NCBI GenBank assembly: GCA_046760505.1
Contig: JBHIEG010000011.1
Span: forward strand, 1 to 64,000
Reading direction: 5' to 3'
DNA from: Candidatus Hydrothermarchaeota archaeon
GTDB taxonomy: Archaea; CAYFZR01
DNA: 64,000 nucleotides
The position numbers and the translations under genes were made by a program. A model generated the notes under the pieces. It had not been told where the DNA came from, did not search any database, and saw only the letters and a program-made list of their open reading frames with translations. Shown in pieces: positions 889 through 64,000 of this stretch. Position 1 is the stretch's first letter; each line of letters begins with the position of its first letter.

Positions 889-992
889 ATTATTACTCCT
901 GATATTATTCCTAAAACAAGTCCTAAGAAAAAGAACCTCCAGTCTATCTCTTTTTTTCTGCTTATTTTTAACCAGTAGTTTATTTCTTTCAT
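885..992 (-). CDS. mtrF: MtrF-like single-TM small protein (35 aa)
   Basis: Hand translation MKEINYWLKISRKKEIDWRFFFLGLVLGIISGVII; ATGA overlaps at both ends; canonical mtrF position between mtrA and mtrG; sequence similarity is weak. Confidence 0.6.
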   Translation of the reverse strand: MKEINYWLKISRKKEIDWRFFFLGLVLGIISGVII

Positions 993-17213: not shown

Positions 17214-18215
17214 TTAAGTGACTATGTTTAACTCTCTTCCACAAAACTTACAATTCTTATCTTCTATGTTTTCTTTTCCTATGCTAAATCCATGCCTTTC
17301 AATCAAAAGATTTTTGCAGTTGGGACAGTATGTATTCTCTCCGGGATGCCCTGGAACATTTCCCAAATAAACATATGAGAGACCCATCTCAATAGCCTTT
17401 TCTCTGAGAGTTTCTAAGGTTTTCACTGGAGTGGGTGGTATTCTATTCATTTTGTAGTGGGGATGAAATCTCGTCACGTGCAAAGGAACTTCTTCACTCA
17501 ATTCTTTCAGGATCCATTCGATTAACTGTTTAAAATCCTCTATAGAATCGTTATATCCTGGAATAACGAGATTGGTTATTTCTACATGTATATTATTCTC
17601 AAACATAAATTTTGTAGCATTTAATACTTCTTCCCACCTTGGTATACCTGCTACCGTTTTATAAAATTTATCAGAAAATCCTTTTATGTCTACGTTGGCA
17701 GCATCTAACACCGGAGCAATCTTTTCTAGAGGATCTAAACAAATATATCCGTTTGTGACGTATACTGTATAGAAATCTTCTTTTTTTGCTATTTTTGCTG
17801 TTTCATAGGTATACTCAAACCATATAGTGGGTTCATTGTACGTCCATGCAATTCCTTGGCATCCATATGCTGGAATCATTTCAACTGCTTTCTCAGGACT
17901 TATTTCGTGTAAGCGGATATCTTCAAATTTACACTGACTTATTGTCCAGTTCTGGCAATGCTTACACCTGAAATTACATCCTACGGTTCCAAAGGATAAA
18001 ACATATGATTTCGGATAAAAATGGAACAATGGCTTCTTTTCTATAGGGTCAGGATGTACGGAAGATACTTTTCCGTATATTAGGCTGTTGAGGACTCCAT
18101 CATTGTTTTCTCTAACTCCACAGAAACCTCTTTTTCCCGATGCTATCTTGCATCTCCAAGGGCAGAGAAAGCATCTTACCTTAGAGTTTTCTGTTAAATA
18201 GAACATTGCCTCCAT
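17214..18215 (-). CDS. amrS: AmmeMemoRadiSam system radical SAM enzyme
   Basis: CFLCPWRC..GFCGVREN, DPIEKKPLFHFYP, GCNFRCKHCQNW, TYNEP, C-terminal CPNC..CKFC. Confidence 0.92.
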   Translation of the reverse strand: MEAMFYLTENSKVRCFLCPWRCKIASGKRGFCGVRENNDGVLNSLIYGKVSSVHPDPIEKKPLFHFYPKSYVLSFGTVGCNFRCKHCQNWTISQCKFEDIRLHEISPEKAVEMIPAYGCQGIAWTYNEPTIWFEYTYETAKIAKKEDFYTVYVTNGYICLDPLEKIAPVLDAANVDIKGFSDKFYKTVAGIPRWEEVLNATKFMFENNIHVEITNLVIPGYNDSIEDFKQLIEWILKELSEEVPLHVTRFHPHYKMNRIPPTPVKTLETLREKAIEMGLSYVYLGNVPGHPGENTYCPNCKNLLIERHGFSIGKENIEDKNCKFCGRELNIVT

Positions 18216-48723: not shown

Positions 48724-50454
48724 TCAGTTGAATGATAGCCTACTTTTGACAAAATTACTCATGGTTTCAAAGGCCCTTTCATCCGCATCAATAGGCTCAG
48801 AACAGAATTCGTTTGCACAAACATACAACTTTGGCTCCTCATGAACTGGATAATTTAGTTTTGATATCCTTTTTTCATGCTTCTCGGGATTTAAAATCTC
48901 AATTATTTTGTTTGGTTCAAAAAATCTTAGAACTTCTTTGTGAAGATTAATTGTGCCCTCGTCACGCTCTGGGCCTACTATAACCAAATTTACAGGATAC
49001 AGGTACATATCTACCGCGTCTGCATACGCACATGCAAATATTCCGTATCTTTGATAGAGTTCAGAGAAGGCTAAGAGGGTTTTTTCAGCTATCTCTATAT
49101 AATCTTTCTTGCTTAAAAGATAATGAAGTTTAATAAAAACTTGCGCTGCTATAACATTCTCTTGAATTCCCTTATTTCTCATCTTTAAATTCCCTATAGC
49201 CCCTTTATCTTCCATGATATCAAAAAATCCCCCTGAGTTATCATAAAAATTTTTTAGGATAAAATCTGCTATATCTTTTGAGTATTCGATGAAATTTCTT
49301 TTTCCTGTGGATTCATAAGCATCAATAAGTGCCTTTGAAAAATATATCTGATCTGATAAAATTTTGAGTTCGTTTGAGTAGTGATAGACTCCTTCTCCCT
49401 CTTCATAACTGTTTTTCAATAGGAATTCAATGGATTTTAAAGCATATTTTAAATATTTCTTTTCATCCAGAATGTTAAAAGCATGGAGATATGATGATAT
49501 GGCGATTGAATTCCAGTTCGTGAATTTTGTTTTATCTACTGGTGGTTCTTTCATAAATGCCCTTTCTTTCTCATCCAATCTATAAAATTCTTCATCCGCG
49601 GATTGACTTCCATAGAATCCTCCATTCTCTTTATCAAAAAGTCTAGAATCAATGTAATTCAATATTTTTATTGCTGTTTCCTTATATTTTAAATCAGAAG
49701 TTATTGCGTATGCATTCAAGTAAGTTTTCAGGAGATTTGCATTGTCCTCAAGCATCTTTTCAAAATGAGGAATGCTCCAGTCTCTAGTTGTTGAGTATCT
49801 GAAGAATCCTCCATAAACATGATCAAATATTACCCCAGAACTCATTTTATCAAGGGTTTTAAGGACTATATTTAGGTAATATTCATCTCCAGTTCTGTTA
49901 TACCATTTAAGAGATAGATTTAGGGCATCTGAGTGATGAAACTTTGGAGCGTTTCCAAATCCGCCAAAATCTGGGTCAAATGAATCCACTATATATCCAA
50001 TTACATCATGAATGATTTTTTGATTCAGTTTTCCTTCTCGTAGTTTTATCTCTTCTTCGATCAAATGTTCTGATTCTGATATCTTTGCATAAATCTCATC
50101 TCTGTGTTCTCTGTAGTAATTGCTGACACGTTCCAAAAGGAGTTTCAGCTTTTGAGGAGGAAAGTAAGTGCCTCCTGTCAAGATTTCACCTGTTGGGGTA
50201 AGGAAGACAGTTGTTGGCCAGCCACCCATGTTGTACCTTTGATTAATATCCGGCCTCCTATCGTTGTCGACGCTAATCGCTATAAAATGACTGTTCACGA
50301 GGTTTACTACGTCTTCGTCTCTGTAGGTTGTATCTTCCATTACATGGCACCAATGGCACCATTTCGCTCCAATTTTCAATAATATTGGTCTATCTAAATC
50401 TTTTGCAAGTTTAAAGGCTTTTTCTCCCCATTCATGCCATTTTATTTCTTTTAT
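48724..50454 (-). CDS. YyaL/DUF255 thioredoxin-domain protein
   Basis: WCHWCHVME, RPDI..GGWPTTVFL, GGFFRYST..W..PHFEKML; the conserved N-terminus IKWHEWGEKAF..AK..RPILL extends upstream of the track's TTG to an ATA at 50454. Confidence 0.88.
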   Translation of the reverse strand: MKEIKWHEWGEKAFKLAKDLDRPILLKIGAKWCHWCHVMEDTTYRDEDVVNLVNSHFIAISVDNDRRPDINQRYNMGGWPTTVFLTPTGEILTGGTYFPPQKLKLLLERVSNYYREHRDEIYAKISESEHLIEEEIKLREGKLNQKIIHDVIGYIVDSFDPDFGGFGNAPKFHHSDALNLSLKWYNRTGDEYYLNIVLKTLDKMSSGVIFDHVYGGFFRYSTTRDWSIPHFEKMLEDNANLLKTYLNAYAITSDLKYKETAIKILNYIDSRLFDKENGGFYGSQSADEEFYRLDEKERAFMKEPPVDKTKFTNWNSIAISSYLHAFNILDEKKYLKYALKSIEFLLKNSYEEGEGVYHYSNELKILSDQIYFSKALIDAYESTGKRNFIEYSKDIADFILKNFYDNSGGFFDIMEDKGAIGNLKMRNKGIQENVIAAQVFIKLHYLLSKKDYIEIAEKTLLAFSELYQRYGIFACAYADAVDMYLYPVNLVIVGPERDEGTINLHKEVLRFFEPNKIIEILNPEKHEKRISKLNYPVHEEPKLYVCANEFCSEPIDADERAFETMSNFVKSRLSFN

Positions 50455-50595
50455 TAGAATTCCTCCCGGATTTAAATTAAATGAGCAAAACTAATTTAAA
50501 GATTTCGGAAATGCCTAATGAGAACATAATTCAAAAAACTTAACACCGAGATATGCTGGAAAATGCCTTAAAGCTCTCTCGAGAATTTCTTTCTC

Positions 50596-51381
50596 TTATT
50601 TTAATTCAAATTCAGCGACCACTATTGTATGGTCAGACGGTCTTTCTTCGAGCCTCGGTTGTATATCTATGTAACAGTTTATAGATTTTTCAGCAAGAGG
50701 TGGAGAAGCAAGTATTAAATCAACTCTCCATCCGATTTTTCTCTCTACTGCATTTTTTACCCTGTAATCGAAAAAAGTGTACTGGTTAGCCTGAATATTA
50801 TGTTTTCTGAAGATATCAACAAACCCCATTGATCTTACCATTTCAAAAGCATATCTTGCCTTTTCGTGAAAACAAACATGATTCCTTAAATCTTTTGGAT
50901 TGTGAACATCGATTTCTTCAGGCGCTACATTCATGTCTCCGCACCAGATTACATATTCTTTCATATTCATGTTTCTTTCAAAGAATTTCCTCAATCTATT
51001 AAACCATTCCAGTTTGTATTCATATCTCGGGCTTTCTACCTTAAAACCTTGGGGCACGTATGTGTTTACAACTGTAAGATCTTGGAATTTTGCCTTAATC
51101 AGTCTATCTTTATCCTTTGGTTCTGCATCGAAACCAAATTTCACATCCCTTGGTTCTTCAAGAGATGCTATTGCAACGCCATTTCTCCCTTTAGATCCAC
51201 TGAAAGCGACATGATAGCCGATTCTTCGAAATTGGTTCACTGGAAACTTTCTGTCTTCCACCTTAGTTTCCTGCATGCAGAAAATATCTGGTCTATTTCT
51301 TTCAAGCCATGGTATTACGATGTGAAGGCGGGATCTTATGGAATTAACATTATAGGTAGCTATTTTAATGTTTTTTGCCAT
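50596..51381 (-). CDS. xth: Exodeoxyribonuclease III
   Basis: TYNVNSIR, QETK, GDMNVAP, GWRVD, PSDH. Confidence 0.95.
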   Translation of the reverse strand: MAKNIKIATYNVNSIRSRLHIVIPWLERNRPDIFCMQETKVEDRKFPVNQFRRIGYHVAFSGSKGRNGVAIASLEEPRDVKFGFDAEPKDKDRLIKAKFQDLTVVNTYVPQGFKVESPRYEYKLEWFNRLRKFFERNMNMKEYVIWCGDMNVAPEEIDVHNPKDLRNHVCFHEKARYAFEMVRSMGFVDIFRKHNIQANQYTFFDYRVKNAVERKIGWRVDLILASPPLAEKSINCYIDIQPRLEERPSDHTIVVAEFELK

Positions 51382-51384
51382 CTT

Positions 51385-52095
51385 CTAGCTCTCCGGGGCT
51401 TTTTTACGCACGATAACAACGTACCTAGATGTAAAAAAATTTAATGGAAACATCTTTCTCAAATACCTATGAATCTTTACCCACATACCAAACATATGCT
51501 TAGAAAGTCTCTGAGGAAAGTATTCGTGCCCAAGTCTTTTAATTTCATATTCAAATCCGAGTTCATTGAATATCTCTCTTATTTCTTTCTCAGAATACCA
51601 GAAATCGAATAAAGAACTGTTTTTCCCGAAAAAATTGAAAATTTTAAACAAATAGCCGTTAAAAGATTCTATTTTTGGAAAAGATATGATTACTAGATTA
51701 TTAGAGGCTCTTATCATCTCTCTTATCATCTTTGTCGATTTAAATACAGCGGTTAATCCTGCTGAGTTAACTACATCAAAACTATTATCTTTAAAGGGTA
51801 AGTATTCTGCATCTCCTCTAACGAGAAAGCATGAGGAGTTTACTTTGTTTAACATTTCCGCTGAAAAATCTAATCCACAAACAAAGTCTGATATTTTGGA
51901 TAATTCTCTTAGAAATCTTCCTGTTCCGCATCCAACATCTAATATGCGGTCCTTTTTAGAGACATTCATGATTTTTAAATGCTCATATAGACCCTCCTTT
52001 CTCACCTCCCCTAAAATAGATGGAGCATCGAGATCATGATATCTATTTGCTCTAAAATCATAGTACCGGAGGATCTTCTCCTTCAAGGAGGACAC
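51385..52095 (-). CDS. Class I SAM-dependent methyltransferase
   Basis: ILDVGCGTG, GLDFSAEML, GDAEYLPFKDNSFD. Confidence 0.9.
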   Translation of the reverse strand: MSSLKEKILRYYDFRANRYHDLDAPSILGEVRKEGLYEHLKIMNVSKKDRILDVGCGTGRFLRELSKISDFVCGLDFSAEMLNKVNSSCFLVRGDAEYLPFKDNSFDVVNSAGLTAVFKSTKMIREMIRASNNLVIISFPKIESFNGYLFKIFNFFGKNSSLFDFWYSEKEIREIFNELGFEYEIKRLGHEYFPQRLSKHMFGMWVKIHRYLRKMFPLNFFTSRYVVIVRKKAPES

Positions 52096-52354
52096 TCTTA
52101 ACCCCCCTGTAAAACTCAGGTCTTATCCTCACATAAGTCGTCTTCATTTCCCCTGATTTATATTCAAAGTCTTCAATGAGTTCCTCTAACTTTTCTGTCC
52201 TCTCTGCATTAAACTTATCCTTTAATAATTTGATTTCTCCTGCTGATCCGCCTCTATACCCGAAAAAGCATAGGATCAACAGGTAATTTTTTTCTTTCTG
52301 TTCTAGTTCAGAGATTTTTTTCCTTACATAAACTTCAATATCTTTGAGGACCAT
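52058..52354 (-). CDS. Hypothetical protein
   Basis: 98 aa with GGTGG RBS; overlaps the methyltransferase start. Confidence 0.55.
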   Translation of the reverse strand: MVLKDIEVYVRKKISELEQKEKNYLLILCFFGYRGGSAGEIKLLKDKFNAERTEKLEELIEDFEYKSGEMKTTYVRIRPEFYRGVKSVLLEGEDPPVL

Positions 52355-52371
52355 ATTACCACCGGGATAAT

Positions 52372-52968
52372 ATGAATTTCAAGGACTTTCACGGGCACAT
52401 CTGTCCAATGTCCATACTTGGTATCAAGATGTCTAACTATGCTCTAAAACTTTTGGATATCAACTCAAAAAAAGAGGGGATCATAGCGATTCCCGAAATA
52501 AGAAACTGCATGGTGGATGGAATACAGTGGACTATTGGCGCCACTTTCGGAAAGACAAATCTTATTTTTAGAGATATCGGGAAATATGCGTGTGTATTCA
52601 GCAGGGAGAAGGACGGAAGGTCTCTCAGGATAAAAATAAAAGATGATATAGTTGAAAAAAGTCTTGAATACGGAAAAGAAGCCCAAATGGTCCGTAAAAG
52701 ACTTTCTAAAATGGATGAAGAAGAAAAAAGATGGGAATTGGAACTGCTGTTCAGAAAGGGAAGGAACATAGTTGACTACATAGAAAAAAAGGACTATGAA
52801 GATCTCTTCGAGGTGAATGATGTAGAGCTGAATCTTAAGATAGAGGAAGATTCCCTTGATGTAAAAAGGTGTGATAAATGCGGAGAAATCACTTTGAAAG
52901 AAAAATTGACGGACAATTTATGCAAAGATTGCCTGGATCCTTTCTATTCTATAAAAACTATTCCATAA
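52372..52968 (+). CDS. FmdE-family protein with C-terminal Zn finger
   Basis: FHGHICPMSILG, NCMVDGIQ, GATFGK, CDKCGE..CKDC. Confidence 0.88.
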   Translation: MNFKDFHGHICPMSILGIKMSNYALKLLDINSKKEGIIAIPEIRNCMVDGIQWTIGATFGKTNLIFRDIGKYACVFSREKDGRSLRIKIKDDIVEKSLEYGKEAQMVRKRLSKMDEEEKRWELELLFRKGRNIVDYIEKKDYEDLFEVNDVELNLKIEEDSLDVKRCDKCGEITLKEKLTDNLCKDCLDPFYSIKTIP

Positions 52969-52988
52969 AGGATTATTAATCATCTATA

Positions 52989-53885
52989 TCAGAAGAAATA
53001 CTTGTGCATGCAATCATTTCTAAGTATCTCTTCGTACTTCTTTTTTATATTTTGAGTCATCCAGGGCTTTATTTCATGTACTGCGTCCAAGAAATCTTTC
53101 ATAGATATTTCATCAAATGAATCTCCTCTCTCCTTAATTGCATTTAAGGCTGCTCTCCTACATAATGCTTCAAGATCCCATCCAACAAAGTTTTCTGTTT
53201 TTCTGGCTATTTCCTCAAGATTAACATCTCTTGCAAGAGGATAATTCTTTGTATACATTTTTAGGATCTTCAATCTATCTTCTTGACTGGGAGGAGGAAC
53301 ATAGATCTTTTTCTCAAGTCTACCTCTCCTAAAAATCGCCATATCAACTACATCAAGTCTGTATCCCGATCCTACCACTAAAATATAGGAATCTTCTTTT
53401 AATGAATCTATGCCTTTGAATACTATCTCAGAGACTTCTTTGGATGCTATCTTATCTGGTTTTCCCCTCTCATCTCGATTTCCCCAATCGTAGGAACAAT
53501 TTCTTCTTGGAACAATCCAGTCCAGATCGCTGATATGCATAATGCATGGTTTATTTTCTCTGGCAAGCTTAAAAGCCTTAGAAACAGCCTCTGGAAGATC
53601 TGTTACCTCTCTTCCTCTGAGATAAACGTAGTTAACTCCGGCTTCACTTGCAGAGGCTTCTGCTAGAATAGCCTTTCCTGACCCAAGCGGACCCCATAAA
53701 AAAACACCAGTTGGAACCTTAAGATTTAATTTATTGAATGTTTTCATATGTTTTAAGGGAATGCAAATCATTTCCCTGATTTTTTCCTTTACCTCTTCGA
53801 GTCCAGCGATATCATCGAACGTTACCCTTGGCTTCCTCACATCGAGATAGGCGTTGTGATAGTGCATGGTCACACCAAAAGGCAT
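52989..53885 (-). CDS. Single-domain CDC48-like AAA+ protein with degenerate Walker motifs
   Basis: VTFDDIAGLEEVK, GPLGSGKA, HISDLD, RRGRLE, FVGWDLEALCRRAA. Confidence 0.85.
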   Translation of the reverse strand: MPFGVTMHYHNAYLDVRKPRVTFDDIAGLEEVKEKIREMICIPLKHMKTFNKLNLKVPTGVFLWGPLGSGKAILAEASASEAGVNYVYLRGREVTDLPEAVSKAFKLARENKPCIMHISDLDWIVPRRNCSYDWGNRDERGKPDKIASKEVSEIVFKGIDSLKEDSYILVVGSGYRLDVVDMAIFRRGRLEKKIYVPPPSQEDRLKILKMYTKNYPLARDVNLEEIARKTENFVGWDLEALCRRAALNAIKERGDSFDEISMKDFLDAVHEIKPWMTQNIKKKYEEILRNDCMHKYFF

Positions 53886-53958
53886 CTTAATCTATTCTTA
53901 ATTTATACTGTTTCTATCCTCCATAACCTGTCTTCATTATTCTCCATTAACTACTTCC

Positions 53959-55059
53959 TTACCCTATGCTGTTCAATATATCCAGCAGTTTAGAAATGTC
54001 TTCCTCGCTGTTGTATATGTGGGGTGAAAACCTTATGTATTCTCGAAAAGATGCTATAACACCTTTATTTAAGAGATATTTTTCATTCAAATTATTTTTA
54101 ATTGAAATAATCCCTGATCTATTTTTTCTTTCAAAAGAACTCAATAATTCGAATTTTTCTAGTCCTTCTAAGAGCGATGTAGCCAGATCAAGTACTCTTT
54201 TTTGAATTTTCTTTAATCCTATTGAAAATATAAGTTCGAGAGCGGATTTCATCCCGATGATAGCCGAGATATCCATATTTCCTATCTCAAATCTGGATGC
54301 TGAATCTTTTAACTCATATCTGTAAATATTCATGGCTTTGTAATCTTTGACGGATAACCAGCCTAGAATAGGCGGATCGTCTATTAATTCTTCCTTTATA
54401 TAGAAAATTCCAGATCCTAACGGAGAAAGAAGCCATTTGTATCCGCCTGCTGATAAAAAATCAATATTGTAGCTCTTTACATCCATTTCAAAGACTCCAA
54501 GTGATTGGGTAGCATCCACGTGGAGTAAAACACCCTTTTCAACGCAGATCTTTCCTATCTCATTTAAATCTACTCTGAAGCCATTGCCGTACATCACTGA
54601 GCTTATTGAAACCAACTTTGTGTTATCATCGATTTCTCTCTCCAATTCTTCTGGCAGTAGTTTTCCACCTACGTTCCTCACGTACTTTATCTCTACCCCT
54701 TTTCTCCTAAGATTTAGGAAAGGATATATGTTTGCTGGAAAATCTAGGTCGCTTACGATCACGTTATCTCCCTTTTCCCAGTCTATTATTAAAGCCACAA
54801 GATTTACGCCCTCAGATGTATTCTTTACGAAGGCTATCTCAGATTCTTTAGCCCTGCAGATCTTTGCTGCCAGTTTCCTGCAATCTTCTACTTCCTGAGA
54901 CCACTTATCGAAGCATAAAGATCCATAAATTGCTCTCTCAAGTTCAAATTTTCTCATAGAATCGATGACCGGATAGCAGTAAGGAGAAAGAGATGCCGCA
55001 TTAAAGTAGAGGAACTTATTTACGATTGGAAAAAGATTTCTTAAAGATTCGAATTTCAT
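53959..55059 (-). CDS. Aminotransferase class V PLP enzyme (cysteine desulfurase/selenocysteine lyase-like fold)
   Basis: YFNAASLSP, NTSEG, VDATQSLG, GGYKWLLSPLGSG, RFSPHIYN; no obvious NifS/SufS catalytic Cys loop. Confidence 0.88.
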   Translation of the reverse strand: MKFESLRNLFPIVNKFLYFNAASLSPYCYPVIDSMRKFELERAIYGSLCFDKWSQEVEDCRKLAAKICRAKESEIAFVKNTSEGVNLVALIIDWEKGDNVIVSDLDFPANIYPFLNLRRKGVEIKYVRNVGGKLLPEELEREIDDNTKLVSISSVMYGNGFRVDLNEIGKICVEKGVLLHVDATQSLGVFEMDVKSYNIDFLSAGGYKWLLSPLGSGIFYIKEELIDDPPILGWLSVKDYKAMNIYRYELKDSASRFEIGNMDISAIIGMKSALELIFSIGLKKIQKRVLDLATSLLEGLEKFELLSSFERKNRSGIISIKNNLNEKYLLNKGVIASFREYIRFSPHIYNSEEDISKLLDILNSIG

Positions 55060-55846
55060 CGGATCTTCCCTCTAAACATGTCTCTTTATCTCTAACCTCT
55101 TTCTTTAATAGATCCCAAATCTCCTGCCTTATTTCCGGAAACTTGGGATTTGTTTTTGCCTCATCTCTGGGTCTTGAGAGTTCTATATCTATTATTTCTT
55201 TTATCCTAGCAGGTCTTGAAGACATTACCGCTACTCTATCAGATAAATAAATGGCTTCGTCAATGTTGTGCGTCACGTAGATTATCGTTTTTTTCGTCCT
55301 ATTCCAAATTCTCAGCAACTCTCTCTGTAGATTCTCACTGGTCAGAGCGTCTACCGAAGCGAATGGCTCGTCCATCAAGAGCACGTCAGGATCTGTTGAA
55401 AGTGCCCTTGCAAGAGCGGCTCTCTGCATCATTCCTCCAGAAAGATCCCTTGGATAAACATCTTCGAAGCCCTTTAGCCCAACCAGTTCTATGTAATATT
55501 TTGCGATTCTCTCCCTTTCCCTCTTCTTTATTCTTCTTATCTCTAGTCCCAACTCAACATTTTTCATCACGGTTCTCCAGGGTAATAAGGCATAGCCCTG
55601 AAAAAGCATGCCTCTATCAAGTCCGGGTCCTTTAATCTCCTTACCGTTGATTTTTACGATTCCATGCGTGGGTTCTTCTAATCCTGCTATTATATTCAGT
55701 AGAGTTGTTTTTCCGCACCCGCTTGGTCCAACAATACCTAAAAACTCGCCATCTCTTACATCTAAGGACAAATCTTTTAAAACTACCAAATCAGAGTTAT
55801 CTAAGCGAAATACCTTTGTTAAGTTTTCTATACTTATCTTTGCCAT
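55016..55846 (-). CDS. SsuB/TauB/NrtD-type ABC importer ATP-binding subunit
   Basis: GPSGCGKTT, FQGYALLPWRTV, LSGGMMQR, LMDEPFASVDALT, RPARIKE..LSRPR. Confidence 0.93.
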   Translation of the reverse strand: MAKISIENLTKVFRLDNSDLVVLKDLSLDVRDGEFLGIVGPSGCGKTTLLNIIAGLEEPTHGIVKINGKEIKGPGLDRGMLFQGYALLPWRTVMKNVELGLEIRRIKKRERERIAKYYIELVGLKGFEDVYPRDLSGGMMQRAALARALSTDPDVLLMDEPFASVDALTSENLQRELLRIWNRTKKTIIYVTHNIDEAIYLSDRVAVMSSRPARIKEIIDIELSRPRDEAKTNPKFPEIRQEIWDLLKKEVRDKETCLEGRSDEIRIFKKSFSNRK

Positions 55847-55963
55847 ATTTGATCTCCACGATAAAGTGTCTGGAATGCCATAAGAACCACTGTAATCTCT
55901 TATATTTTTACTCTTTCATTTGAGATAACATTTAAGAAATAAGATTTAGACTCATTAGAAATA

Positions 55964-57031
55964 ATGAATGTTGCGAGAAAAAAGATATTACTGCAGTCAA
56001 AAGGAGTCAGAATAGATTTTGATCTGGAAAATAAGTTGAAAAAAAGATTTTCTGGCGTAACTCAGGACTTCATGTCATTTTTCATGGATGAAATTCCTGT
56101 TGGAATACTCAATGGATATTTTACTGAAGAATCTCCCTTTGAAATAAGGCAAATTGGAAATGAGCAATTTGTATTCAAGAGCGATGAGTTATTCGCTAAG
56201 ATAAGATTCTTACCTCGGCCCGATTTCTTGAACAAAAGGACTTCTGAGGGAATAAAAATGGAAGACCTTTGTAACTATGTCGCACCTGGTTTTCTTATCA
56301 TATATCTGAGTCAGAGATGTGTCTACTGGAGAGTAAAAAAACAGTGTAAATTCTGCGTTACAGAATATGAGGATAAACTGGCTGAGAAAAATAAAGAACA
56401 GATTGTGGAGTTGGTAGAACAGGCATTAAAAGAGGGGTCAATAAAGACTCATGTAAATCTTACTACCGGAACTCTAAAAGGACCTGATAGGGGGATTAAG
56501 CCTTTAGCTGAGGTAACGAATGCGATAAAAGAGAGATTCGACGTTAAGGTAAGTGTAAATGGAGAACCGCCTAGAGATCTTAAATATTTGGATTTACTGG
56601 AAAACGCGGATTCTTTGTACATAAACATCGAGATTTTTGATGAGAAATACAGAAAAGAATTGATGCCTGGAAAAGGAATGATACCCATAGAACACTATGT
56701 TGAGGTATTTAAAAAGTCTTTAGAGATATTTGACGAAAATCAGGTGTGCTCAACCCTTCTAGCTGGTCTACAGAGGGATGAGAAACTGTTAGAGGGAGCA
56801 GAGTTCCTAGCTCAGTTAGGGGTGTTACCGGTCGTACTGCCCTTTTATCCTAGACCATTCACACCATTAGAAAATTTAAAGCCTCCAGATGCTGAGAGAA
56901 TGGAAAAGATCTATGCAGAGACATCAGAGATAATAAAAGACTATGGATTAGATCCATTTAAGACAAAAGCAGGGTTCATGAGGGGAGGCGCTATCTTTGC
57001 ACTGAAAGAGGTTTATGAATCTTTATGTTAA
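55964..57031 (+). CDS. Radical SAM protein (MSMEG_0568-like)
   Basis: LLQSKGVR, CVYWRVKKQCKFC (Cx8Cx2C), LTTGT, GVLPVVLPFYP..FTPL...PP. Confidence 0.75.
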   Translation: MNVARKKILLQSKGVRIDFDLENKLKKRFSGVTQDFMSFFMDEIPVGILNGYFTEESPFEIRQIGNEQFVFKSDELFAKIRFLPRPDFLNKRTSEGIKMEDLCNYVAPGFLIIYLSQRCVYWRVKKQCKFCVTEYEDKLAEKNKEQIVELVEQALKEGSIKTHVNLTTGTLKGPDRGIKPLAEVTNAIKERFDVKVSVNGEPPRDLKYLDLLENADSLYINIEIFDEKYRKELMPGKGMIPIEHYVEVFKKSLEIFDENQVCSTLLAGLQRDEKLLEGAEFLAQLGVLPVVLPFYPRPFTPLENLKPPDAERMEKIYAETSEIIKDYGLDPFKTKAGFMRGGAIFALKEVYESLC

Positions 57032-57098
57032 TTAATCCAAAGGTTGCATTAAAATATCGGAAACTTTTAAATATCCTCAACTTCTTTAACTTGCAAAT

Positions 57099-58064
57099 AT
57101 GTATATTACTAGGTTAACACTAATCATGATTATTGTAATGCTACTTTTGAGCGGTTGCATTTCAAGAGTTCCTGAAAGAGAACTCCCAATGAGGATAGGA
57201 CAACTCAGCGGCGTTGCCAACGAGGAATACTTCGCGATATATAACAATTACTTCGAAAAGGAAGGATTGAACATCACATGGGTTCCTTTCAGGGGAGGAT
57301 CCGGTGTAGTTCAAGCGGCAATTGCAAACCAGATAGATGGCGGCGTGATGGGATCTGTACCTGCGGTTATAAAAGCTGTTTCCAGAGGAGTACCATTGAA
57401 AATTGTTGCAGTGGGAGCATTAGAAACTAAGGAACATTCTGGAGACAGGCTAGTTGTTTTAAAAAAATCAGGAATAAAGGATATCAAGGATCTAAAGGGC
57501 AAAAAGATTGCAGTGCATAGATTCGGAACAACGCTGGACTTTATAGTCAGAAGAGTATTAAAAGAGAACGGCATAGATCCGGTTAAGGATGTCACACTGG
57601 TTCAAGTGCCAGTGCCTCAAATGGTCCCGGTGCTTCAGAGAGGAGAGGTAGATGCTGCTTTCATCTTCCCCTATTTCTATCCTTATGTAAAAGACAACGT
57701 GACAATTTTAATCACTCCAGGAGACGTGTATCCAGAGGGATTTCCAATTAGTGTGGTTTTTTTCAGGGAAGAATTTATACAAGAGCACCCAGAAAAAGTT
57801 GAAAAATTCGTTAGGGCTTATCTAAAGGGTATTGAATGGGGAGAAAACAACCCCGACAAGTTACCGGATCTCGTTGTAAAATACACAGATATACCAAGAG
57901 AAATAGCCACAGAAATCCCATGGCCTGCAAATAATCCCTCAGGCAGGGTAGATTCGAAAACATTCGATAAAATAATAAGTGATATAAAAGATTACGATCC
58001 TACGCTTTTAGAAAAGAATGTTACAGGGGAAGATTTATTAGATTATAGATTCTTGCCTACTTGA
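57099..58064 (+). CDS. SsuA/THI5-type ABC substrate-binding lipoprotein
   Basis: Lipobox LLSGC; YFEKEGLNI, FRGGSG, IKDLKGKKIAV, GEVDAA. Confidence 0.9.
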   Translation: MYITRLTLIMIIVMLLLSGCISRVPERELPMRIGQLSGVANEEYFAIYNNYFEKEGLNITWVPFRGGSGVVQAAIANQIDGGVMGSVPAVIKAVSRGVPLKIVAVGALETKEHSGDRLVVLKKSGIKDIKDLKGKKIAVHRFGTTLDFIVRRVLKENGIDPVKDVTLVQVPVPQMVPVLQRGEVDAAFIFPYFYPYVKDNVTILITPGDVYPEGFPISVVFFREEFIQEHPEKVEKFVRAYLKGIEWGENNPDKLPDLVVKYTDIPREIATEIPWPANNPSGRVDSKTFDKIISDIKDYDPTLLEKNVTGEDLLDYRFLPT

Positions 58065-58737
58065 TTTCCTTATAAATTCCCTCTCCTGCGCAGGGGCGAC
58101 AGTATCTCTTTCCATCTTTTTCTACTGTTTTTCTCTCTTCCACCAGATCATTGCATCGAGCGCATTTTATCGCATTCGTTATGTATTGAGTGTCCAGAGG
58201 ATACATCATGTCCTCTGGATTCACTTTGACCTCTGAAACTATGAACAGTTCATCATCTCCCATTTTGTTCCATTTCTCTAACAATCCGTCTTCAATATCA
58301 AATAATTCCTTTCTCCATTTCTCTGCTTCTTCATCAGAGAGATTATCTACCTTTTCGTAAAATTTTGCCAACTCAGATCCATACCTTATGTGCTCTTCAT
58401 CAACATCTTCTCTGCACCTTATTCTAATGGTCTTGCCAGTTCTTCGATCGCAAAATATGGCTGCGAACTTTCCATAATCCTTGAAGGTTAATCTGCCGCT
58501 TCCAAAAGAGCAATTCGTTGCGCTGGCTATTCCATCTGCTGCACAGGTTAGAACCTCCACTGTAGCGCATAAATCTCTTTTCCTTTTAATATCAAGTTTT
58601 TTTAGAGCTAACATACCCATTCTGGCCCCTAAATAAGAGGCCGTACAGACATGACCATGTACTCTTCTCACGGTTTCTAGTATCTCATCGAGAGTCATTT
58701 CCTTCAGTTCTTTTAGACTCTTATCTCTCTTCTCCAT
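58057..58737 (-). CDS. FmdE-family protein with C-terminal Zn finger
   Basis: VHGHVCTASYLG, TCAADGI, CSFGSG, DYGKFAAIF, CARCND..CRPC. Confidence 0.88.
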   Translation of the reverse strand: MEKRDKSLKELKEMTLDEILETVRRVHGHVCTASYLGARMGMLALKKLDIKRKRDLCATVEVLTCAADGIASATNCSFGSGRLTFKDYGKFAAIFCDRRTGKTIRIRCREDVDEEHIRYGSELAKFYEKVDNLSDEEAEKWRKELFDIEDGLLEKWNKMGDDELFIVSEVKVNPEDMMYPLDTQYITNAIKCARCNDLVEERKTVEKDGKRYCRPCAGEGIYKEIK

Positions 58738-59477
58738 CTGGTCGTCCTCCTCTCTATTGCGAGCATAATTTCATTGAATATGAATCCTATCATGCCTATG
58801 GTAAATATTCCGGCGAACATCTTTTCGGTTTGAAATGCATATTCCGCATCCAATATCAAGAATCCCAAGCCTGCTCTAGCCCCAATCATTTCAGTTACAA
58901 TGAGCAGTATCAAAGAGACAGCAAGGGATAATCTTAGACCCGTGATTATAAATGGGGTCGCGCTAGGTAAGATTATCTTCGTAACTATTTGAAGGCGAGA
59001 AGCCTCGAACAATTTTGCCACGTTTACAAGGTTTAAATCCACGTGTCTCACTCCTGATATCGTGTTTAGAAGTATTGGAAAATAGCAGGCAAAAGCAATT
59101 ATCAGGATTTTTGAGGCATTTTCAATGCCCAACCATAAGATTGCGACAGGAATTAAAGCAGCAGCAGGTATAGGTCTAAACAACTCTACGATAGGATTAG
59201 AAATATCTTCAACAGTCCTAGACAAGGCTATCAGGATTCCATGGGGTATAGCGATAATCGCTGCTATGAAAAAACCGGAGAGCGCTCGATAGAGACTTAC
59301 CTTTACATGTGTAATCAATTCTCCGTTCATTATAAGCGTGATGAAGGTTAGAAGAACCTTAGAAGGTGCTGGAAGGAAAAGAGAACTCACTAAACCTAGA
59401 TCACAGAAAACTTCCCATAAAAAGAAAAATATCAAGAGAGAGCCAATTCTTAGAAGGTATCTCCGATTCAATTTCAT
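58713..59477 (-). CDS. SsuC/TauC-type ABC permease
   Basis: LPAPSKV, SLYRALSGF, RPIPAAALIP, PILLNTISGV, LPSATPFIITGLR, EMIGARAGLG. Confidence 0.93.
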   Translation of the reverse strand: MKLNRRYLLRIGSLLIFFFLWEVFCDLGLVSSLFLPAPSKVLLTFITLIMNGELITHVKVSLYRALSGFFIAAIIAIPHGILIALSRTVEDISNPIVELFRPIPAAALIPVAILWLGIENASKILIIAFACYFPILLNTISGVRHVDLNLVNVAKLFEASRLQIVTKIILPSATPFIITGLRLSLAVSLILLIVTEMIGARAGLGFLILDAEYAFQTEKMFAGIFTIGMIGFIFNEIMLAIERRTTRWRREIRV

Positions 59478-60503
59478 TTAAAACACCAGTGGTATTTCAT
59501 TTCCGCATTTACATTTTTTTTCCATTAATTTCCAATCAGTAATGTCGTATCCTTCCCTTTTTATAATTAGATTCTTGCATTTGGGACAGTATGTGTTTTT
59601 CCCAGGATGGGAATAAATGTTCTCCAAGTAAACGTATTCCAATCCGCTTTCATAAGCGAGATTTAACGCTGATTCCATCACATCTAAGGGAGTAGAACTT
59701 ATATTGTCCATCCTGTAACTCGGTATATATCGAAGAAAAATTAGCGGAGAGTTCAAAAGCCCCGCAAAATTAATTACTTCTCCCAAATTTTTTTGATAAT
59801 TAGGTATTAAGACATAAACGATTTCTAAATGAATTTTTTCCTCTTTTATAAATAAAGCAAGGTCTCTTATTTCATTCAAGACTTTTTTTCTTGAACTCCC
59901 ACAAACGTTTCTGTAGAATGAATCATCTCCTTTTAGAGAGATGATAACTGCATCCGTGTAATTAGATATGTGCTTAAAGGCATCTTTTGAAATTAATCCG
60001 TTTGTAGCAAATACATTTAATAATTTTTTTTCATCAGCGTCTTTCATTATTTCTGAATAGTACTCTAAGTTGAGAGTTGGTTCAGAATGAGTGTATACGA
60101 TGCCCTTACAATCGAGTTCTAAAGCTGCCCTAACAAGTTTCTTAGGCATCAAGAAGACGGTACTTATTTCTTCAAGCGGAACCTGAGTAATGTTCCAAGT
60201 TAAGCAAAATTCGCACCTGAGGTTGCATCCAGCACTTCCTATCATCAAAAAACGATTGTTTGGGTAGAAATGAAAGCATGGTGTTTTTTCTATAGGATCT
60301 ACGCTAAAACTGGTAAGTTTCCCGTAAATAAGATTGTATAATTTTCCTTTTCGGTTTTCTCTTACCCCGCAAAATCCTCTTCTTCCCTCTTCAATCGTGC
60401 ATTGAAAAATACAAAGCTTGCACCTTATCTTACCGTTATTTTTAGAGTAGAACATCGCCTCCTTCATCAAAGAGCCTTTGGACAAGATGATATAAAAATT
60501 CAT
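59478..60503 (-). CDS. Second, divergent AmmeMemoRadiSam-like radical SAM protein
   Basis: CKLCIFQC..GFCGVREN, DPIEKTPCFHFYP, GCNLRCEFC, C-terminal CPKC..CKC; start may be 60467. Confidence 0.85.
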   Translation of the reverse strand: MNFYIILSKGSLMKEAMFYSKNNGKIRCKLCIFQCTIEEGRRGFCGVRENRKGKLYNLIYGKLTSFSVDPIEKTPCFHFYPNNRFLMIGSAGCNLRCEFCLTWNITQVPLEEISTVFLMPKKLVRAALELDCKGIVYTHSEPTLNLEYYSEIMKDADEKKLLNVFATNGLISKDAFKHISNYTDAVIISLKGDDSFYRNVCGSSRKKVLNEIRDLALFIKEEKIHLEIVYVLIPNYQKNLGEVINFAGLLNSPLIFLRYIPSYRMDNISSTPLDVMESALNLAYESGLEYVYLENIYSHPGKNTYCPKCKNLIIKREGYDITDWKLMEKKCKCGNEIPLVF

Positions 60504-61033
60504 TCTTGAGATTCTTTGAATAACACCTCATCAAAGAAATCAGCCAAGAATCCAGATAATAAAGCACTAAGAAAAGTTGCAAAGGAGATTAAACAAACAA
60601 GTAATAATCCAAAGACAGGGTCATTTGGTTTAACAAAAGCAAAAAATGCATATGCCTGGGGGAAACTTAAAACAATTGATCTTGAAGCGGTAAGGGCGGT
60701 TACAGATCCTAACGTAGCGCCTTGTTTGAGGAGAGTCGATAGCAGGGGCAACCTAAACAGACCTTTAGGAGGAGTTATGGTACCGAGTAGCACACCATAT
60801 AGAAGTCCTTTCTTTCCTGCTTTCTTACCCAAGAGTTTAGAAACGATATTTTCAGGCATGAAGTTTTGAGTTAAGCCTGCTAACAACATTGCCACTATCA
60901 CAAGAGGTAGCACTTCGAAAAAAAGGTCTACCGTAAATGAAAGAGCCTCCTTAAATCTAGAGCTGTCCAGTGTAAAGAGGGCAAAATAAAAGGCGAGTAC
61001 TATATATAAGATCCATTGCTCACTTTTTCTCAC
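60500..61033 (-). CDS. DUF318/ArsP-like permease half
   Basis: Start reassigned to the GTG at 61033 (GTGA overlap); MPENIVSKLLG..G..GLLYGVLLGTITP..LPLLSTLLKQGATLG. Confidence 0.75.
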   Translation of the reverse strand: MRKSEQWILYIVLAFYFALFTLDSSRFKEALSFTVDLFFEVLPLVIVAMLLAGLTQNFMPENIVSKLLGKKAGKKGLLYGVLLGTITPPKGLFRLPLLSTLLKQGATLGSVTALTASRSIVLSFPQAYAFFAFVKPNDPVFGLLLVCLISFATFLSALLSGFLADFFDEVLFKESQE

Positions 61034-61512
61034 AGAAAACCACCCATAAAACTCGCTATGATTCCAGCGAAAAATGCTCCGGTGATTATTGCAAGCGCCT
61101 GGATCTTCATTATGCGTGTATCCAGAAATGCATATGCTTGAGGCAGGTACAAGAGGGAAAAACTTGCAAGGAGTGCTGTAACAGCGCCAATTCCCGCTCC
61201 AAGTTGTAGTAAGGTCACAACAACTGGCAATCGAATGTAGGGTCCTCCTGGAAGTATACAACCTAGGGCAACGCCGAATAATATACTTCTATATCCATGC
61301 GAACCTCCCAAAAAAGTTATAACAAGATTTTCTGGCAGTACGGAATGAACTATACCTGCTAAGGCTATACCAGCGAGCAATAGGTAAAAGGTATTCAGAA
61401 AGGTATCGTATGAGTATCTCAGGCTCTTCCTAGTTTTTTCTTCATCTCTGTAGTAACAGAAAAGATACATCAAAATACAAAGCAAAATGAAGGTTACCTC
61501 TATGATTTCCAT
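61030..61512 (-). CDS. DUF318/ArsP-like permease half
   Basis: LPENLVITFLGGSHGYRSILFGVALGCILPGGPYIRLPVVVTLLQLGAGIG. Confidence 0.78.
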   Translation of the reverse strand: MEIIEVTFILLCILMYLFCYYRDEEKTRKSLRYSYDTFLNTFYLLLAGIALAGIVHSVLPENLVITFLGGSHGYRSILFGVALGCILPGGPYIRLPVVVTLLQLGAGIGAVTALLASFSLLYLPQAYAFLDTRIMKIQALAIITGAFFAGIIASFMGGFL

Positions 61513-61574
61513 GATATGTTAAAATCCAAGGGAATATTAAAATTCTTTCGTAACAGAAGATTATAGGTGGAAGA

Positions 61575-62246
61575 ATGTACGACAAAGGCATTGTAATCTT
61601 TATATCATCAACTTTCATATTATTGCCCATAGTAAATCTTTTAGAAAATCCATTTGAAGTCCAGAGAGATCAAAATTTAGAGAATTTCTTAGCTTTAAAG
61701 CCCCTTTTTTATTTTGAAGGAAATTCCAGTTTAATAAGGGAGGCGACTAAATATGAGATCGAAAAGATAAAACTATTCTCGAATTTCGTTTCAATGAATC
61801 AATCTCAAAGAGAAACTTTGGATAAATTCCTCTCTGCCTACAATAAAACAATGGAAGACATTATACTGTGCTCGAATCTTGAGCATAAAATTAGAAGTGC
61901 ACCCTCTTATGAATTAGCATTAAGAATAGAGGAACAGTACAGAAAAATATTAAGGGATTATGAGTTAATGATTTCCTATTTGCTAGATCTAAGTGGTTTT
62001 ATGGAAGACTATCCAGACGATTTAGTCGTTAGAGAAAAATACGGCTACAAAATTACTGTTTATGATATTAAAAGAGAGGTAGAACTCTGTATGGAAAACA
62101 AAGATTCAATCGCAAAAGAAATAGAAAGAAGGAGTGAAATACTGCATAAAAATGATGTTGCGAAAAGGTTAATCTTAGAGCAATTTATTCTTCTATTGAT
62201 GGTGATTTCCGTGGTAATTTATGTATTCAGGAGGTATAGATCTTGA
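61575..62246 (+). CDS. Hypothetical exported helical protein with C-terminal TM
   Basis: Signal-like N-terminus, C-terminal TM plus RRYRS; paralogous to the middle of the 62704 ORF. Confidence 0.7.
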   Translation: MYDKGIVIFISSTFILLPIVNLLENPFEVQRDQNLENFLALKPLFYFEGNSSLIREATKYEIEKIKLFSNFVSMNQSQRETLDKFLSAYNKTMEDIILCSNLEHKIRSAPSYELALRIEEQYRKILRDYELMISYLLDLSGFMEDYPDDLVVREKYGYKITVYDIKREVELCMENKDSIAKEIERRSEILHKNDVAKRLILEQFILLLMVISVVIYVFRRYRS

Positions 62247-62707
62247 TTTTACTGTTGGTTTTATTCAACATATCCTCTATTTTATCCAGTTATCCTATTC
62301 CTTATGCAAACGAAAGTGCATTTATAGATGGTCCCTACCACGTTATGGACCATAAGTACTATGCGGTTACCTATAGCGATAAAGAAATTCAGGGGATATT
62401 CATTTTAAACTCTACCGGATACCTAGAACTGGACAAGTTAATATGGCAGGAGGTTCTCATGAAAAAATACAACCGTAGTCTTACCGCTTGGGACTACTAC
62501 ATAATAAGAAAGACAGAGAACAGAATTTTCAAGAGGATTCGTCTAGAAATAATGCTTGAATTAATAAAAAAGGGTATGAGACCTACAATGTTCTCATTGA
62601 TCCACGATCTTACGTCGGATATCATTCACGACAACCCGTTTTTATGGCGCATGAGAGTAAAAGAGCCTAAAACTTTCCTCAGATTACCAAGACGCTTGGA
62701 GGGATAA
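62243..62707 (+). CDS. Hypothetical exported protein
   Basis: TTGA overlap with the previous gene; IDGPY..YY domain shared with the 62704 ORF. Confidence 0.65.
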   Translation: MILLLVLFNISSILSSYPIPYANESAFIDGPYHVMDHKYYAVTYSDKEIQGIFILNSTGYLELDKLIWQEVLMKKYNRSLTAWDYYIIRKTENRIFKRIRLEIMLELIKKGMRPTMFSLIHDLTSDIIHDNPFLWRMRVKEPKTFLRLPRRLEG

Positions 62708-64000
62708 CGATCAGAAAAGAATTCAAAGTTGTTCCACCTTTTATTCTATTAATTCTTATTCTACCATTTCTATTATTCATGCCGGCTTTTTGTGTTAAGG
62801 AAGAGATAAGAGAGAAGGCAAAAGAACTTGCTACTCCTCAAGAAGTAGTCATGATAGAGGGGCCAATATACTACAGGAATGATCCTTTTTATCTGGTAGA
62901 TTTCGTATCAAAAGGAGAAGTAAAAAATTCACTTGTTTACGATGCCAATGCAAACTTGGTTGAGAATTCAACCATAGAAAAGAAGATACTTGCTACATAC
63001 TCTTTTTATGAAGTAACAAGAGAAGATCCATTGTTTTATTCATTGGGAGATCCTTCTTTCTTGCCCAAGGCATTTGATTATGATGTAGAAAACGTAAAAA
63101 ATTTCATGGAGTACTGTTCGATTTCAGATCAGGAAAAGAAAATCGTTTTAAAGAGTTTACAAGATTATAAGGTTTTGGGTAAAGACATTGAAGCATGCAG
63201 TAGCTTAACCAATAAAATTTTGAACTGGAAAAATCCTTCCCGAATAGAGATTGATTTTAAAGAAGATATCCCTAAGGCAAGAATAACTATAGTAAATAGA
63301 ACAGGCAAGCTTTCATACGAAGATTGTATCAAACTAACTGAATTGTACGACAGGATTTATTCTGATTACATGGTCTTTGTATCAGATTTGGAGGCTTTTT
63401 CTTCTCTAATAACTGTTTTTCCAGAAGAAAAGCGCAGGCAGAAGTACAATTTAACTGTTACAGATAAAGACATATTAGACGAAGTAACCGCTCTTAAAGA
63501 AAACGGTAATGCAATGAAACTTGAGATAGATTCGAGAAAGAAAATAATGGGCATACAGGAAGTGCTCAGGGAGCCTCGATCTCCTTCATACAAAAACTAC
63601 AAGTTATTAGCGTTTGTCCTTATAATTCTCTTAGTTACAATTCTACGCCTGCGTGGAAAATTATTTTTCATGACTCTTATTCTGCTTCTCACCCTTTCTC
63701 TTGCAATAGAAACGCCTGAAGAAATAATGGAAAAACAGGTCATGGATCCGAGTAAAATGGATCTGAAGATATACGCTAAAGGGATTTCCGATTCTGAAGT
63801 GAGAAAAGTTTTAGAAGGTTATCCTTTCATGCTTAAAGGTGAAAAGGTCATAGTAGATGGTCCCTACTACTACGAAAGCCGAGCCTACTACATATTTGAT
63901 TTTAAGAAAGAGGGAGAGCCTCCAGGAAGTGTTCTGATAGTCGATGCGATACACAAAAGAAAGCTTCCGGCTCGTAAGATAATTGTTCGATTGTATAGAA
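62704..64000 (+). CDS. Large hypothetical membrane protein (partial, runs off the window edge)
   Basis: Not in the ORF track; the frame is open from 62671 to 64000; signal-like FILLILILPFLLFMPAFC, an internal TM hairpin and repeated domains; start uncertain (first ATG at 62779). Confidence 0.8.
   Translation, partial: MTIRKEFKVVPPFILLILILPFLLFMPAFCVKEEIREKAKELATPQEVVMIEGPIYYRNDPFYLVDFVSKGEVKNSLVYDANANLVENSTIEKKILATYSFYEVTREDPLFYSLGDPSFLPKAFDYDVENVKNFMEYCSISDQEKKIVLKSLQDYKVLGKDIEACSSLTNKILNWKNPSRIEIDFKEDIPKARITIVNRTGKLSYEDCIKLTELYDRIYSDYMVFVSDLEAFSSLITVFPEEKRRQKYNLTVTDKDILDEVTALKENGNAMKLEIDSRKKIMGIQEVLREPRSPSYKNYKLLAFVLIILLVTILRLRGKLFFMTLILLLTLSLAIETPEEIMEKQVMDPSKMDLKIYAKGISDSEVRKVLEGYPFMLKGEKVIVDGPYYYESRAYYIFDFKKEGEPPGSVLIVDAIHKRKLPARKIIVRLYR

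Follow-up and report, generated by a model that had tools for sequence, protein, structure and literature searches.

The window analysed here is a 64,000-nucleotide stretch of contig JBHIEG010000011.1 from an uncultured archaeon, and the genes in question are the 13 that lie at 51385..61512. Judged by sequence comparison, they belong to a real and jointly inherited set of about 20 genes that occurs in uncultured archaea; to our knowledge, no host of the set has been cultured. The core of the set appears to be a corrinoid methyltransferase module located outside the 13-gene stretch, and the whole looks like a variant of the corrinoid methyltransferase gene clusters, one in which at least two of the protein subfamilies are unusual. 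The function that we tentatively favour, giving it somewhat less than an even chance, is corrinoid-dependent S-(de)methylation feeding the Wood–Ljungdahl pathway in Mcr-less archaea.

In the following, G000 denotes the source genome and G001 its one same-genus relative, and coordinates of open reading frames (ORFs) are window positions. The 13 ORFs, which use both strands according to the ORF list, are found where the earlier note on this DNA had placed them, and Pfam and NCBIfam scans agree with the families it had named. When 37 close relatives were aligned with the variant radical S-adenosylmethionine (SAM) enzyme of the window (variant rSAM, 55964..57031, +), 11 loci on genome contigs and 10 on metagenome contigs were obtained. 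In L028 of Ca. Hydrothermarchaeum profundi (G041) and L024 of G042, 10 of the 13 window genes fall within one cluster, which also holds an HGD-D-fold protein, a long methyltransferase, an Lrp protein, a Zn-ribbon protein, two further AAA proteins, two MtaA-like proteins (Mlps) and a corrinoid protein. The three window genes outside these clusters are linked to set genes in further genomes. Particular adjacencies also recur: MlpA, AAA3 and AAA1 are contiguous in G041, G042, G043, G044, G045, G051, G057 and G069; the ABC ATPase gene immediately precedes the gene of the pyridoxal-phosphate (PLP) enzyme in G001, G042, G059 and G069; and the PLP gene faces AmrS2 in G045, G059, G068, G069 and G070. 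FmdE2 elsewhere starts a run FmdE2, long methyltransferase, HGD-D, AmrS2, and precedes the long methyltransferase in G041, G042, G059, G070 and the locus L042. Orthologues of the 98-aa protein lie in the loci of G041, G042, G044, G057, G068, G069 and G070, and the DUF318 halves flank set genes in G045 and, in G057, paralogues of such genes.

The presence pattern was surveyed in all 38 genomes of the Hydrothermarchaeota, the phylum of G041, split by the HGD-D orthologue into 12 genomes with it and 26 without. Cluster-type FmdE is found in 12/12 HGD-D genomes and 0/26 others (13 genomes at no more than 107 bits, against at least 220, were dropped after the scores had been seen), MlpA in 11/12 and 0/26 (G049, G050 and G054, at 34-36% identity against at least 59%, were dropped likewise), and the variant rSAM in 9/12 and 0/26 (G073 and G074, at no more than 185 bits against at least 490, being left out in the same way). 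The AAA protein occurs in 10/12 and 0/26, with three copies in 9 of those 10, the PLP enzyme in 10/12 and 2/26, and the window methyltransferase in 8/12 and 0/26. The set thus appears nearly all-or-none, carried by 12 of the 38 genomes. The importer and the DUF318 halves seem to be accessory, the binding protein being present in 5/12 HGD-D genomes and the halves in 3/12, each with 0/26 among the others.

One alternative is that the genes stand together by chance in a genome with shuffled gene order. Strand switching is indeed no rarer in the stretch than in the genome on average, with switches at 4 of the 12 junctions as compared to 580 of 1880 adjacent pairs genome-wide. However, the same families regroup despite differing gene orders and share one presence pattern, which refutes a chance grouping for 11 of the 13 genes; as an account of the whole it is very improbable, and it could still hold for the DUF318 pair. 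The earlier note had named homologues that are never co-located elsewhere as the outcome that would speak against its proposal, and co-location in other archaea is what we find. Its view that the combination is undescribed also stands: no paper describing it turned up in the literature searched, which included the available part of PMC9635834 and left most subscription journals, as well as the supplements of PMC10418091 and PMC9635834, outside its scope.

The description of the 13 genes as a contiguous cluster holds in so far as they are closely spaced, with gaps of -44 to 117 bp. A single operon is excluded by the strand switches at 4 of the 12 junctions, and the set evidently reaches beyond the stretch, to 61575-64000+ in the window and to the contigs C1 and C23 of G000. 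C1:31434-37951 carries MlpB, the long methyltransferase, the HGD-D-fold protein, the RACo activator, the corrinoid protein and MlpC, and C23:14272-17083 carries MlpD, a second AAA protein and MlpA. The homologues of both blocks are united on the single contig C49 in G001. Downstream of the 13 genes, two ORFs at 61575..62707 (+) resemble parts of an unknown membrane protein of about 650 aa (25% and 40% identity to L042:4176-6143), which adjoins the long methyltransferase in L042 and the like of which flanks the set in other genomes; they are a probable member of the set. A further probable member is the 601-aa unknown membrane protein that starts at 62779..64000 (+; its ORF ends on the contig at 64584); it is 32% identical to the 650-aa ORF that neighbours the cluster of G041, and the same family also adjoins the G045 cluster.

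We now consider the proposed core. Among solved structures, MlpA is closest to MtaA, and its residues H249, C251 and C329, invariant in 12/12 sequences, match the MtaA (4ay7) motifs HICG and CG in the alignment. This His-x-Cys...Cys zinc site is present in MlpA (12/12) and in MlpB (2/2), while MlpC lacks the third cysteine and MlpD is ambiguous. In the HGD-D-fold protein, C97 and C99 are the only invariant cysteines (10/10 sequences), and the G041 protein scores 55 with the double-cubane cluster model NF040772, against a cut-off of 350. Predictions of a complex between MlpA and the second AAA protein (G000 C23) scored 0.00 twice, the controls not having been folded, and are not used as evidence; for the Zn-ribbon protein, a best ESM Atlas score of 0.84 gives a lead only.

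Two known kinds of system resemble this core. MtsAB and MtpAC of Methanosarcina are methylthiol methyltransferases, in which a UroD-fold zinc methyltransferase and a corrinoid protein act on methylated sulfur compounds. The present set likewise combines a UroD-fold zinc methyltransferase with a corrinoid protein; it differs in that its hosts have neither Mcr nor MtrE, in that its Mlps stay under every MtaA/MtbA cut-off, and in its large accessory set. MtsAB and MtpAC are named in the available text of PMC10418091, by Kountz and Balskus, which describes the mlp gene clusters (MGCs). There, His-Cys-Cys is given as the signature of S- or Se-methyltransferases, which can act on selenide, and methyl-sulfur salvage is proposed for mlp clusters in hosts without selenium traits. 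Set against the four MGC criteria as given there, C1:31434-37951 of G000 agrees with one, as does C32 of G045, and departs from two: the genes are not co-directional (MlpB and MlpC on -, RACo and the corrinoid protein on +), and MlpB lies more than 2 kb from RACo where a spacing of at most 2 kb is asked for. RACo is usually unlinked in the present set, unlike in the MGCs, and that part of the source makes no mention of tailed AAA paralogues, of pairs of FmdE and a methyltransferase, of AmrS2 or of the Cys-less variant rSAM.

As to the hosts, profile searches of five genomes found McrA and MtrE in 0/5, with positive controls detected, MtrH in 4/5 and CdhC in 5/5, G000 included. In the window itself, at 24-734 and 989-1648 (-), an MtrH gene (PF02007 over the cut-off) adjoins a gene that we read from its sequence as MtrA-like, and this pair offers a possible acceptor route for the methyl groups of the corrinoid protein.

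In the S-(de)methylation that we favour, the window genes would form the accessory and maturation half (transport, C–S cleavage and maturation) and those on C1 and C23 the catalytic half. Here we infer each chemical step, the substrate and the direction, and observe the gene content, the co-inheritance, the motifs and the host pathway genes. In the first step, the SsuABC-type importer, where present, would take up an anionic organosulfur compound. It consists of an SsuB/TauB-type ABC ATPase (55016..55846, -; NCBIfam scan and neighbourhood), an SsuA/TauA-type lipoprotein binding protein (57099..58064, +; Pfam/NCBIfam, solved relatives and lipobox) and an SsuC/TauC-type permease (58713..59477, -; Pfam/NCBIfam scan). 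The PLP enzyme would then act as a C–S lyase and split a cysteine conjugate to release a thiol or a persulfide. In the third step, the MtaA-like His-Cys-Cys zinc enzymes may shuttle methyl groups between a thiol or thioether and the corrinoid protein, which RACo would reactivate. In the fourth, methyl groups would pass to or from the Wood–Ljungdahl pathway via MtrH/MtrA or acetyl-CoA synthase, a route we propose because searches for Mcr and MtrE came up empty. Preparing the substrate or maturing metal sites would fall to the two radical SAM enzymes, the HGD-D-fold protein, the two pairs of FmdE and a methyltransferase, and the tailed AAA proteins. On genomic grounds, the available part of PMC6946796 raises the possibility that methanethiol and further methyl compounds serve one clade of the Hydrothermarchaeota, without describing the present set.

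Class V PLP enzymes often mobilise sulfur or selenium, as the earlier note had remarked. The PLP class V enzyme of the window (53959..55059, -) lacks the Cys loop of a desulfurase: the loop that carries the cysteine in SufS and IscS has no conserved Cys in 9 orthologues, and all models stay under their cut-offs. By alignment and structural relatives the enzyme is instead a candidate C–S lyase of the C-DES kind, C-DES being among its solved relatives, but SufS proteins outscore it.

Two FmdE-methyltransferase pairs are suggested by gene adjacency, FmdE1 with the window methyltransferase and FmdE2 with the long methyltransferase. FmdE1 (PF02663; 52372..52968, +), with an HGHxC...CxxDG metal site and a treble-clef Zn finger by family scan and motifs, lies beside the orthologue of the window methyltransferase in 8/8 genomes that carry the latter. 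That methyltransferase (51385..52095, -) is of the SAM-dependent class I, as judged by family scan and orthologue alignment. FmdE2 (PF02663; 58057..58737, -) was assigned by family scan and neighbourhood. According to the available text of PMC11237513, FmdE also occurs fused to a tRNA methyltransferase domain. AmrS2 (59478..60503, -; likely start 60467) is a divergent AmrS-family radical SAM paralogue scoring 241 bits with TIGR04337 (cut-off 220). A canonical AmrS-like copy at 17214-18215 (-) is about 42% identical to it, the two differing in a motif (YTYNEP-like versus YTHSEP), and could serve as a control for it. AmmeMemo A/B partner genes are absent among the scanned neighbours, no genome-wide search having been made. 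The 98-aa conserved protein (52058..52354, -) has no Pfam or NCBIfam match and a predicted winged-helix-like fold, with a TM score of 0.70 (by query) to Cdc6-type models.

It is important to point out that several observations weigh against this S-(de)methylation reading. Catabolic methyl transfer needs neither two radical SAM enzymes, nor two SAM methyltransferases, nor two to three AAA proteins. The importer is missing from 7 of the 12 set genomes (in a search with the binding protein as query), and RACo, present in 23 of the 38 genomes, is general and not specific to the set. Not one of the 7 Mlps exceeds the NCBIfam cut-off of the MtaA/CmuA models (TIGR01463, NF004889), the best score being 204 as compared to 235. 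For the Zn-ribbon and PqqD genes there is no tblastn match in G000, and for Lrp and the B12-radical SAM the matches are only distant. In G043, G051 and G054 none of the other window genes lies within 10 kb of the variant rSAM. In G001, where gene order and strands are as in G000 at a nucleotide identity of 78-81%, the variant rSAM is absent between the ABC ATPase and the binding protein, and its best match elsewhere in this genome (100% complete) is only 31%. Finally, the 12 set-bearing genomes are kin, and no completeness is given for the 26 negatives.

A second explanation is biosynthesis of a methylated, probably sulfur-containing cofactor or metabolite with the corrinoid module as methylase or recycler, which we consider possible although rather unlikely. 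With two to three radical SAM enzymes, two SAM methyltransferases, the PLP lyase and the HGD-D-fold protein, the large accessory set agrees with it more readily, and in its favour are also the B12-radical SAM with PqqD in the loci of G041 and G045 and the ABC-2 exporter pair in those of G041, G043 and G057. The predicted fold of the variant rSAM (pLDDT 92) is nearest to RlmN, HydE, LipA and PylB, at a TM score of about 0.5. On the other hand, the cysteines of a sacrificial sulfur cluster are absent from this enzyme, which is dispensable in G001 (as the importer is in the set as a whole, with 5/12 genomes carrying it), PqqD is among the genes not found in G000 by tblastn, and no precursor peptide was identified.

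The variant rSAM deserves a closer description. It scores 189 bits with NF045502 (cut-off 125) and 193 with TIGR04043 (cut-off 304), and its cysteine motif is CX8CX2C, with CX7 in most relatives. The C-terminal CxxCxxC is found in 0/37 members of its clade as compared to 14/14 more distant matches, and F(M/L/I/V)(R/K)GG(A/T/S) stands in its place in 37/37. Since the triad is missing, the enzyme is probably unable to donate sulfur from a second cluster of its own. The Nit1C protein NitD (MSMEG_0568 radical SAM, TIGR04043) shares the variant CX7-9CX2C motif, and identity to Cys-bearing archaeal members is about 35%; unlike it, the variant rSAM falls under the TIGR04043 cut-off, lacks the C-terminal CxxCxxC and has no nitrilase-cluster genes in the loci examined. 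This Cys-triad-less, NitD-like clade is apparently new.

Other NitD-like genes were seen in the loci. A recurrent block (L025:4716-11065, L026:4620-11062, L027, L030, L033, L059), usually followed by the Cys-less variant rSAM, contains two radical SAM/SPASM proteins (the first with an N-terminal extension that we read as PqqD-like), a Cys-bearing NitD-like radical SAM, a methyltransferase, an AstE-type peptidase and a TPR protein; its two NitD-like paralogues might act as a pair. L058 (G057 C161) is a paralogous mini-cluster with a DUF318 pair, HGD-D (32%), AmrS-like (42%), a 118-aa protein, a variant rSAM (45%), another NitD-like gene and a 403-aa protein that we take to be U32-peptidase-like; a relative of the latter (38%) lies near the block in G069. 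In L031:3867-11056 (G045) the variant rSAM follows a B12-radical SAM, PqqD and a 4-HFC-P synthase-like gene, with uroporphyrinogen decarboxylase, ferrochelatase and a flavin oxidase as neighbours. A second NF045502-like radical SAM at L048:6272-8202 (G000 C4:50268-52201), at 77 bits under the cut-off and weakly similar to LipS2, is flanked on one side by methanogenesis marker 11 (TIGR03280 over the cut-off) and on the other by what are presumably homocitrate-pathway enzymes; a NitD-like gene adjoins marker 11 in G070 and G073 as well. In an archaeon without Mcr, it is a candidate for inserting sulfur into a chain like that of coenzyme B or lipoate.

The AAA proteins also bear on the biosynthetic alternative. 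AAA1 (52989..53885, -) is a single-domain CDC48-like ATPase with Walker A GSGKA, Walker B HISDLD and a DCMHKYFF tail, as read from motifs and fold. The AAA fold is p97-D2-like (Foldseek E 3.5e-23 against the p97 D2 domain), and the classic fold and lid are common to CDC48/p97 D2, PAN and the proteins of the set. The proteins of the set have no N-domain; when compared with CDC48 and PAN of G000, they have a deleted pore loop 1 and about 12 extra residues behind Walker B, and their Walker motifs are degenerate paralogue by paralogue. They also end in CxHx(Y/S)xx, the last residue usually being aromatic (F/Y), in 82 of 86 matches (the Y form in 75), and the Y form ends just 2 of the 2184 ORFs of G000, both of them AAA copies; this tail counts in favour of biosynthesis, in which the Cys-His tails may be a protein-bound carrier or substrate. 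A substrate-threading unfoldase of the CDC48/PAN kind was considered and rejected, the aromatic pattern of pore loop 1 being found in 0/82 tailed and 2/4 untailed matches. The tailed, pore-loop-less proteins look like a new subfamily and like an ATPase repurposed away from unfolding. A further idea, which we regard as unlikely, is that Mcr-less Wood–Ljungdahl archaea make and use a methyl-carrying thiol that is not coenzyme M. The Cys-x-His tail of a repurposed AAA hetero-oligomer without pore loop 1 could be this carrier; the radical SAM, FmdE-methyltransferase and PLP enzymes would mature it, and the zinc/corrinoid module would add or remove its methyl group.

Another option considered was that coenzyme M (CoM) or methyl-CoM is scavenged from neighbouring methanogens or methanotrophs and used via the MtaA-like enzymes. 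The ssuABC genes are described as the CoM transporter of methanogens in the available part of PMC10658910, MtaA is the closest solved relative of MlpA, and ComD is not over the cut-off in G000, G001 and G042, all of which bear the importer. However, ComD and the importer occur together in G041, neither Mcr nor MtrE was found, G000 has two more SsuABC-type importers unlinked to the set (C2:53919-56483 and C13:10104-13480), and the accessory enzymes would be left unexplained, which makes the scenario quite improbable. It should be noted that TauA and SsuA, in favour of the S-(de)methylation reading, are the nearest solved relatives of the binding protein, which scores 144 with the SsuA model TIGR01728 (cut-off 163.5), and that the ABC ATPase of G041 lies about 600 kb away from its cluster. 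The earlier note had proposed import together with radical or methyl modification of a small molecule; sulfur and methyl or radical chemistry are indeed plausible, but the accessory status of the importer (5/12) removes import from the centre of the proposal.

The remaining explanation, which we consider decidedly doubtful, is a system that takes up, methylates and exports a metal or metalloid (Se, As, Hg, W/Mo/Ni) in the manner of the SAO system. In its favour, FmdE genes mostly neighbour metal transporters (PMC2954224, available part), DUF318 is the ArsP family, and among NCBIfam models the ABC ATPase and the permease match SaoA and SaoP best, in each case under the cut-off. His-Cys-Cys Mlps, moreover, can act on selenide (PMC10418091). 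The SAO system, as far as the available text of bioRxiv 10.1101/2022.07.06.499078 goes, shares with the set a nitrate/sulfonate/taurine-type ABC importer, an ArsP-family permease and a link to HGD-D/double-cubane family proteins; it differs in its Sec machinery and CC/CU or CSC motifs, absent here, and all Sao models stay under the cut-off. The selenium substrate of the earlier note finds no support, SelD and SepSecS being over the cut-off in 0/5 of the genomes tested. ArsM arsenite methyltransferases carry conserved As-binding cysteines, whereas neither methyltransferase of the set has an invariant Cys (6 and 7 orthologues), the binding protein has its lipobox Cys only and none in the mature protein, and CSC is in neither DUF318 half. 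Arsenic or another metal is thus weakly supported at best. The two DUF318/ArsP-family half permeases (PF03773, family scan), a at 60500..61033 (-) and b at 61030..61512 (-), seem accessory, with less weight than the earlier note gave them: their homologues occur in just 3 of the 38 genomes, all set-bearing, and in G045 and G057 they are linked to genes of the set or to paralogues of these. For half a, listed as an ORF at 60500-61261, the most likely start is a GTG codon at 61033 that overlaps the stop codon upstream.

We turn finally to the range and history of the set. The AAA family occurs in 8 of 401 archaeal genomes, namely G000, G001 and six Hydrothermarchaeota (four families, 89-99% complete), and the HGD-D profile gives 4 matches at E<1e-30 among 1.84 billion representatives, from which we take the range to be narrow. 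Three further AAA matches among the 401 genomes, in frames of 743-1297 aa, were read as CDC48 and set aside. Apart from G001, every genome returned as a relative of G000 is of the same domain only, including the six Hydrothermarchaeota, which were recognised by identical match coordinates; this places the G000 lineage outside that phylum; the set thus appears to occur in a second lineage. In the AAA tree, the window copy of G000/G001 is sister to all Hydrothermarchaeota AAA1 (100/100), and the second copy of G000/G001 is sister to AAA2+AAA3 (99/97 in one tree, 96/96 in a second). The second copy has the position and tail of AAA3, and a constraint grouping it with AAA3 is rejected (p-AU 0.025, for a group chosen after the first tree had been seen and in a test that shares the model's biases). 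On the simplest reading, the G000 lineage would have split before the AAA2/AAA3 duplication and kept the two-paralogue state. The MlpA, HGD-D, PLP and variant rSAM trees resolve little. A recent transfer from a member of the Hydrothermarchaeota is not favoured, the median identity to G041 being 54% for 16 set genes and 50% for 16 other best matches, and both G000 AAA copies branching outside the Hydrothermarchaeota copies.

An assembly artefact is unsupported. A single 45-kb contig of the sequencing run X4 covers 50500-62479 with 35 substitutions, and no joint appears in any of 4 runs, all from one study labelled hydrothermal vent metagenome that perhaps includes the source itself. The GC content of the 13-gene stretch is the same as that of the remaining window. 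Nothing notable was found in the scans of the region for repeats or for promoters and terminators (30 sites versus 31.5 expected, bacterial model), and no tRNA within the window. Selenocysteine read-through was considered for the 6 genes that end in TGA and rejected: 5 have another stop within 10 codons, and the sixth, the binding protein gene, overlaps the convergent FmdE2 gene, with no Sec machinery found. The synteny with G001 ends at a DUF255 ORF (48724-50379, -) that begins immediately before its WCHWC motif and matches the profile from position 42 onward, and the N-terminus of which may be shortened.

The set places FmdE, AmrS, the NitD-like radical SAM and the HGD-D-fold singletons, none of which has a defined function, in one co-inherited setting, and their roles become testable because this setting has an assayable zinc/corrinoid methyltransferase core. 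The two-paralogue AAA version of the G000 lineage is simpler and easier to reconstitute. If the proposed S-(de)methylation is correct, the set would define how Mcr-less Wood–Ljungdahl archaea of hydrothermal habitats consume or produce methylated sulfur compounds.

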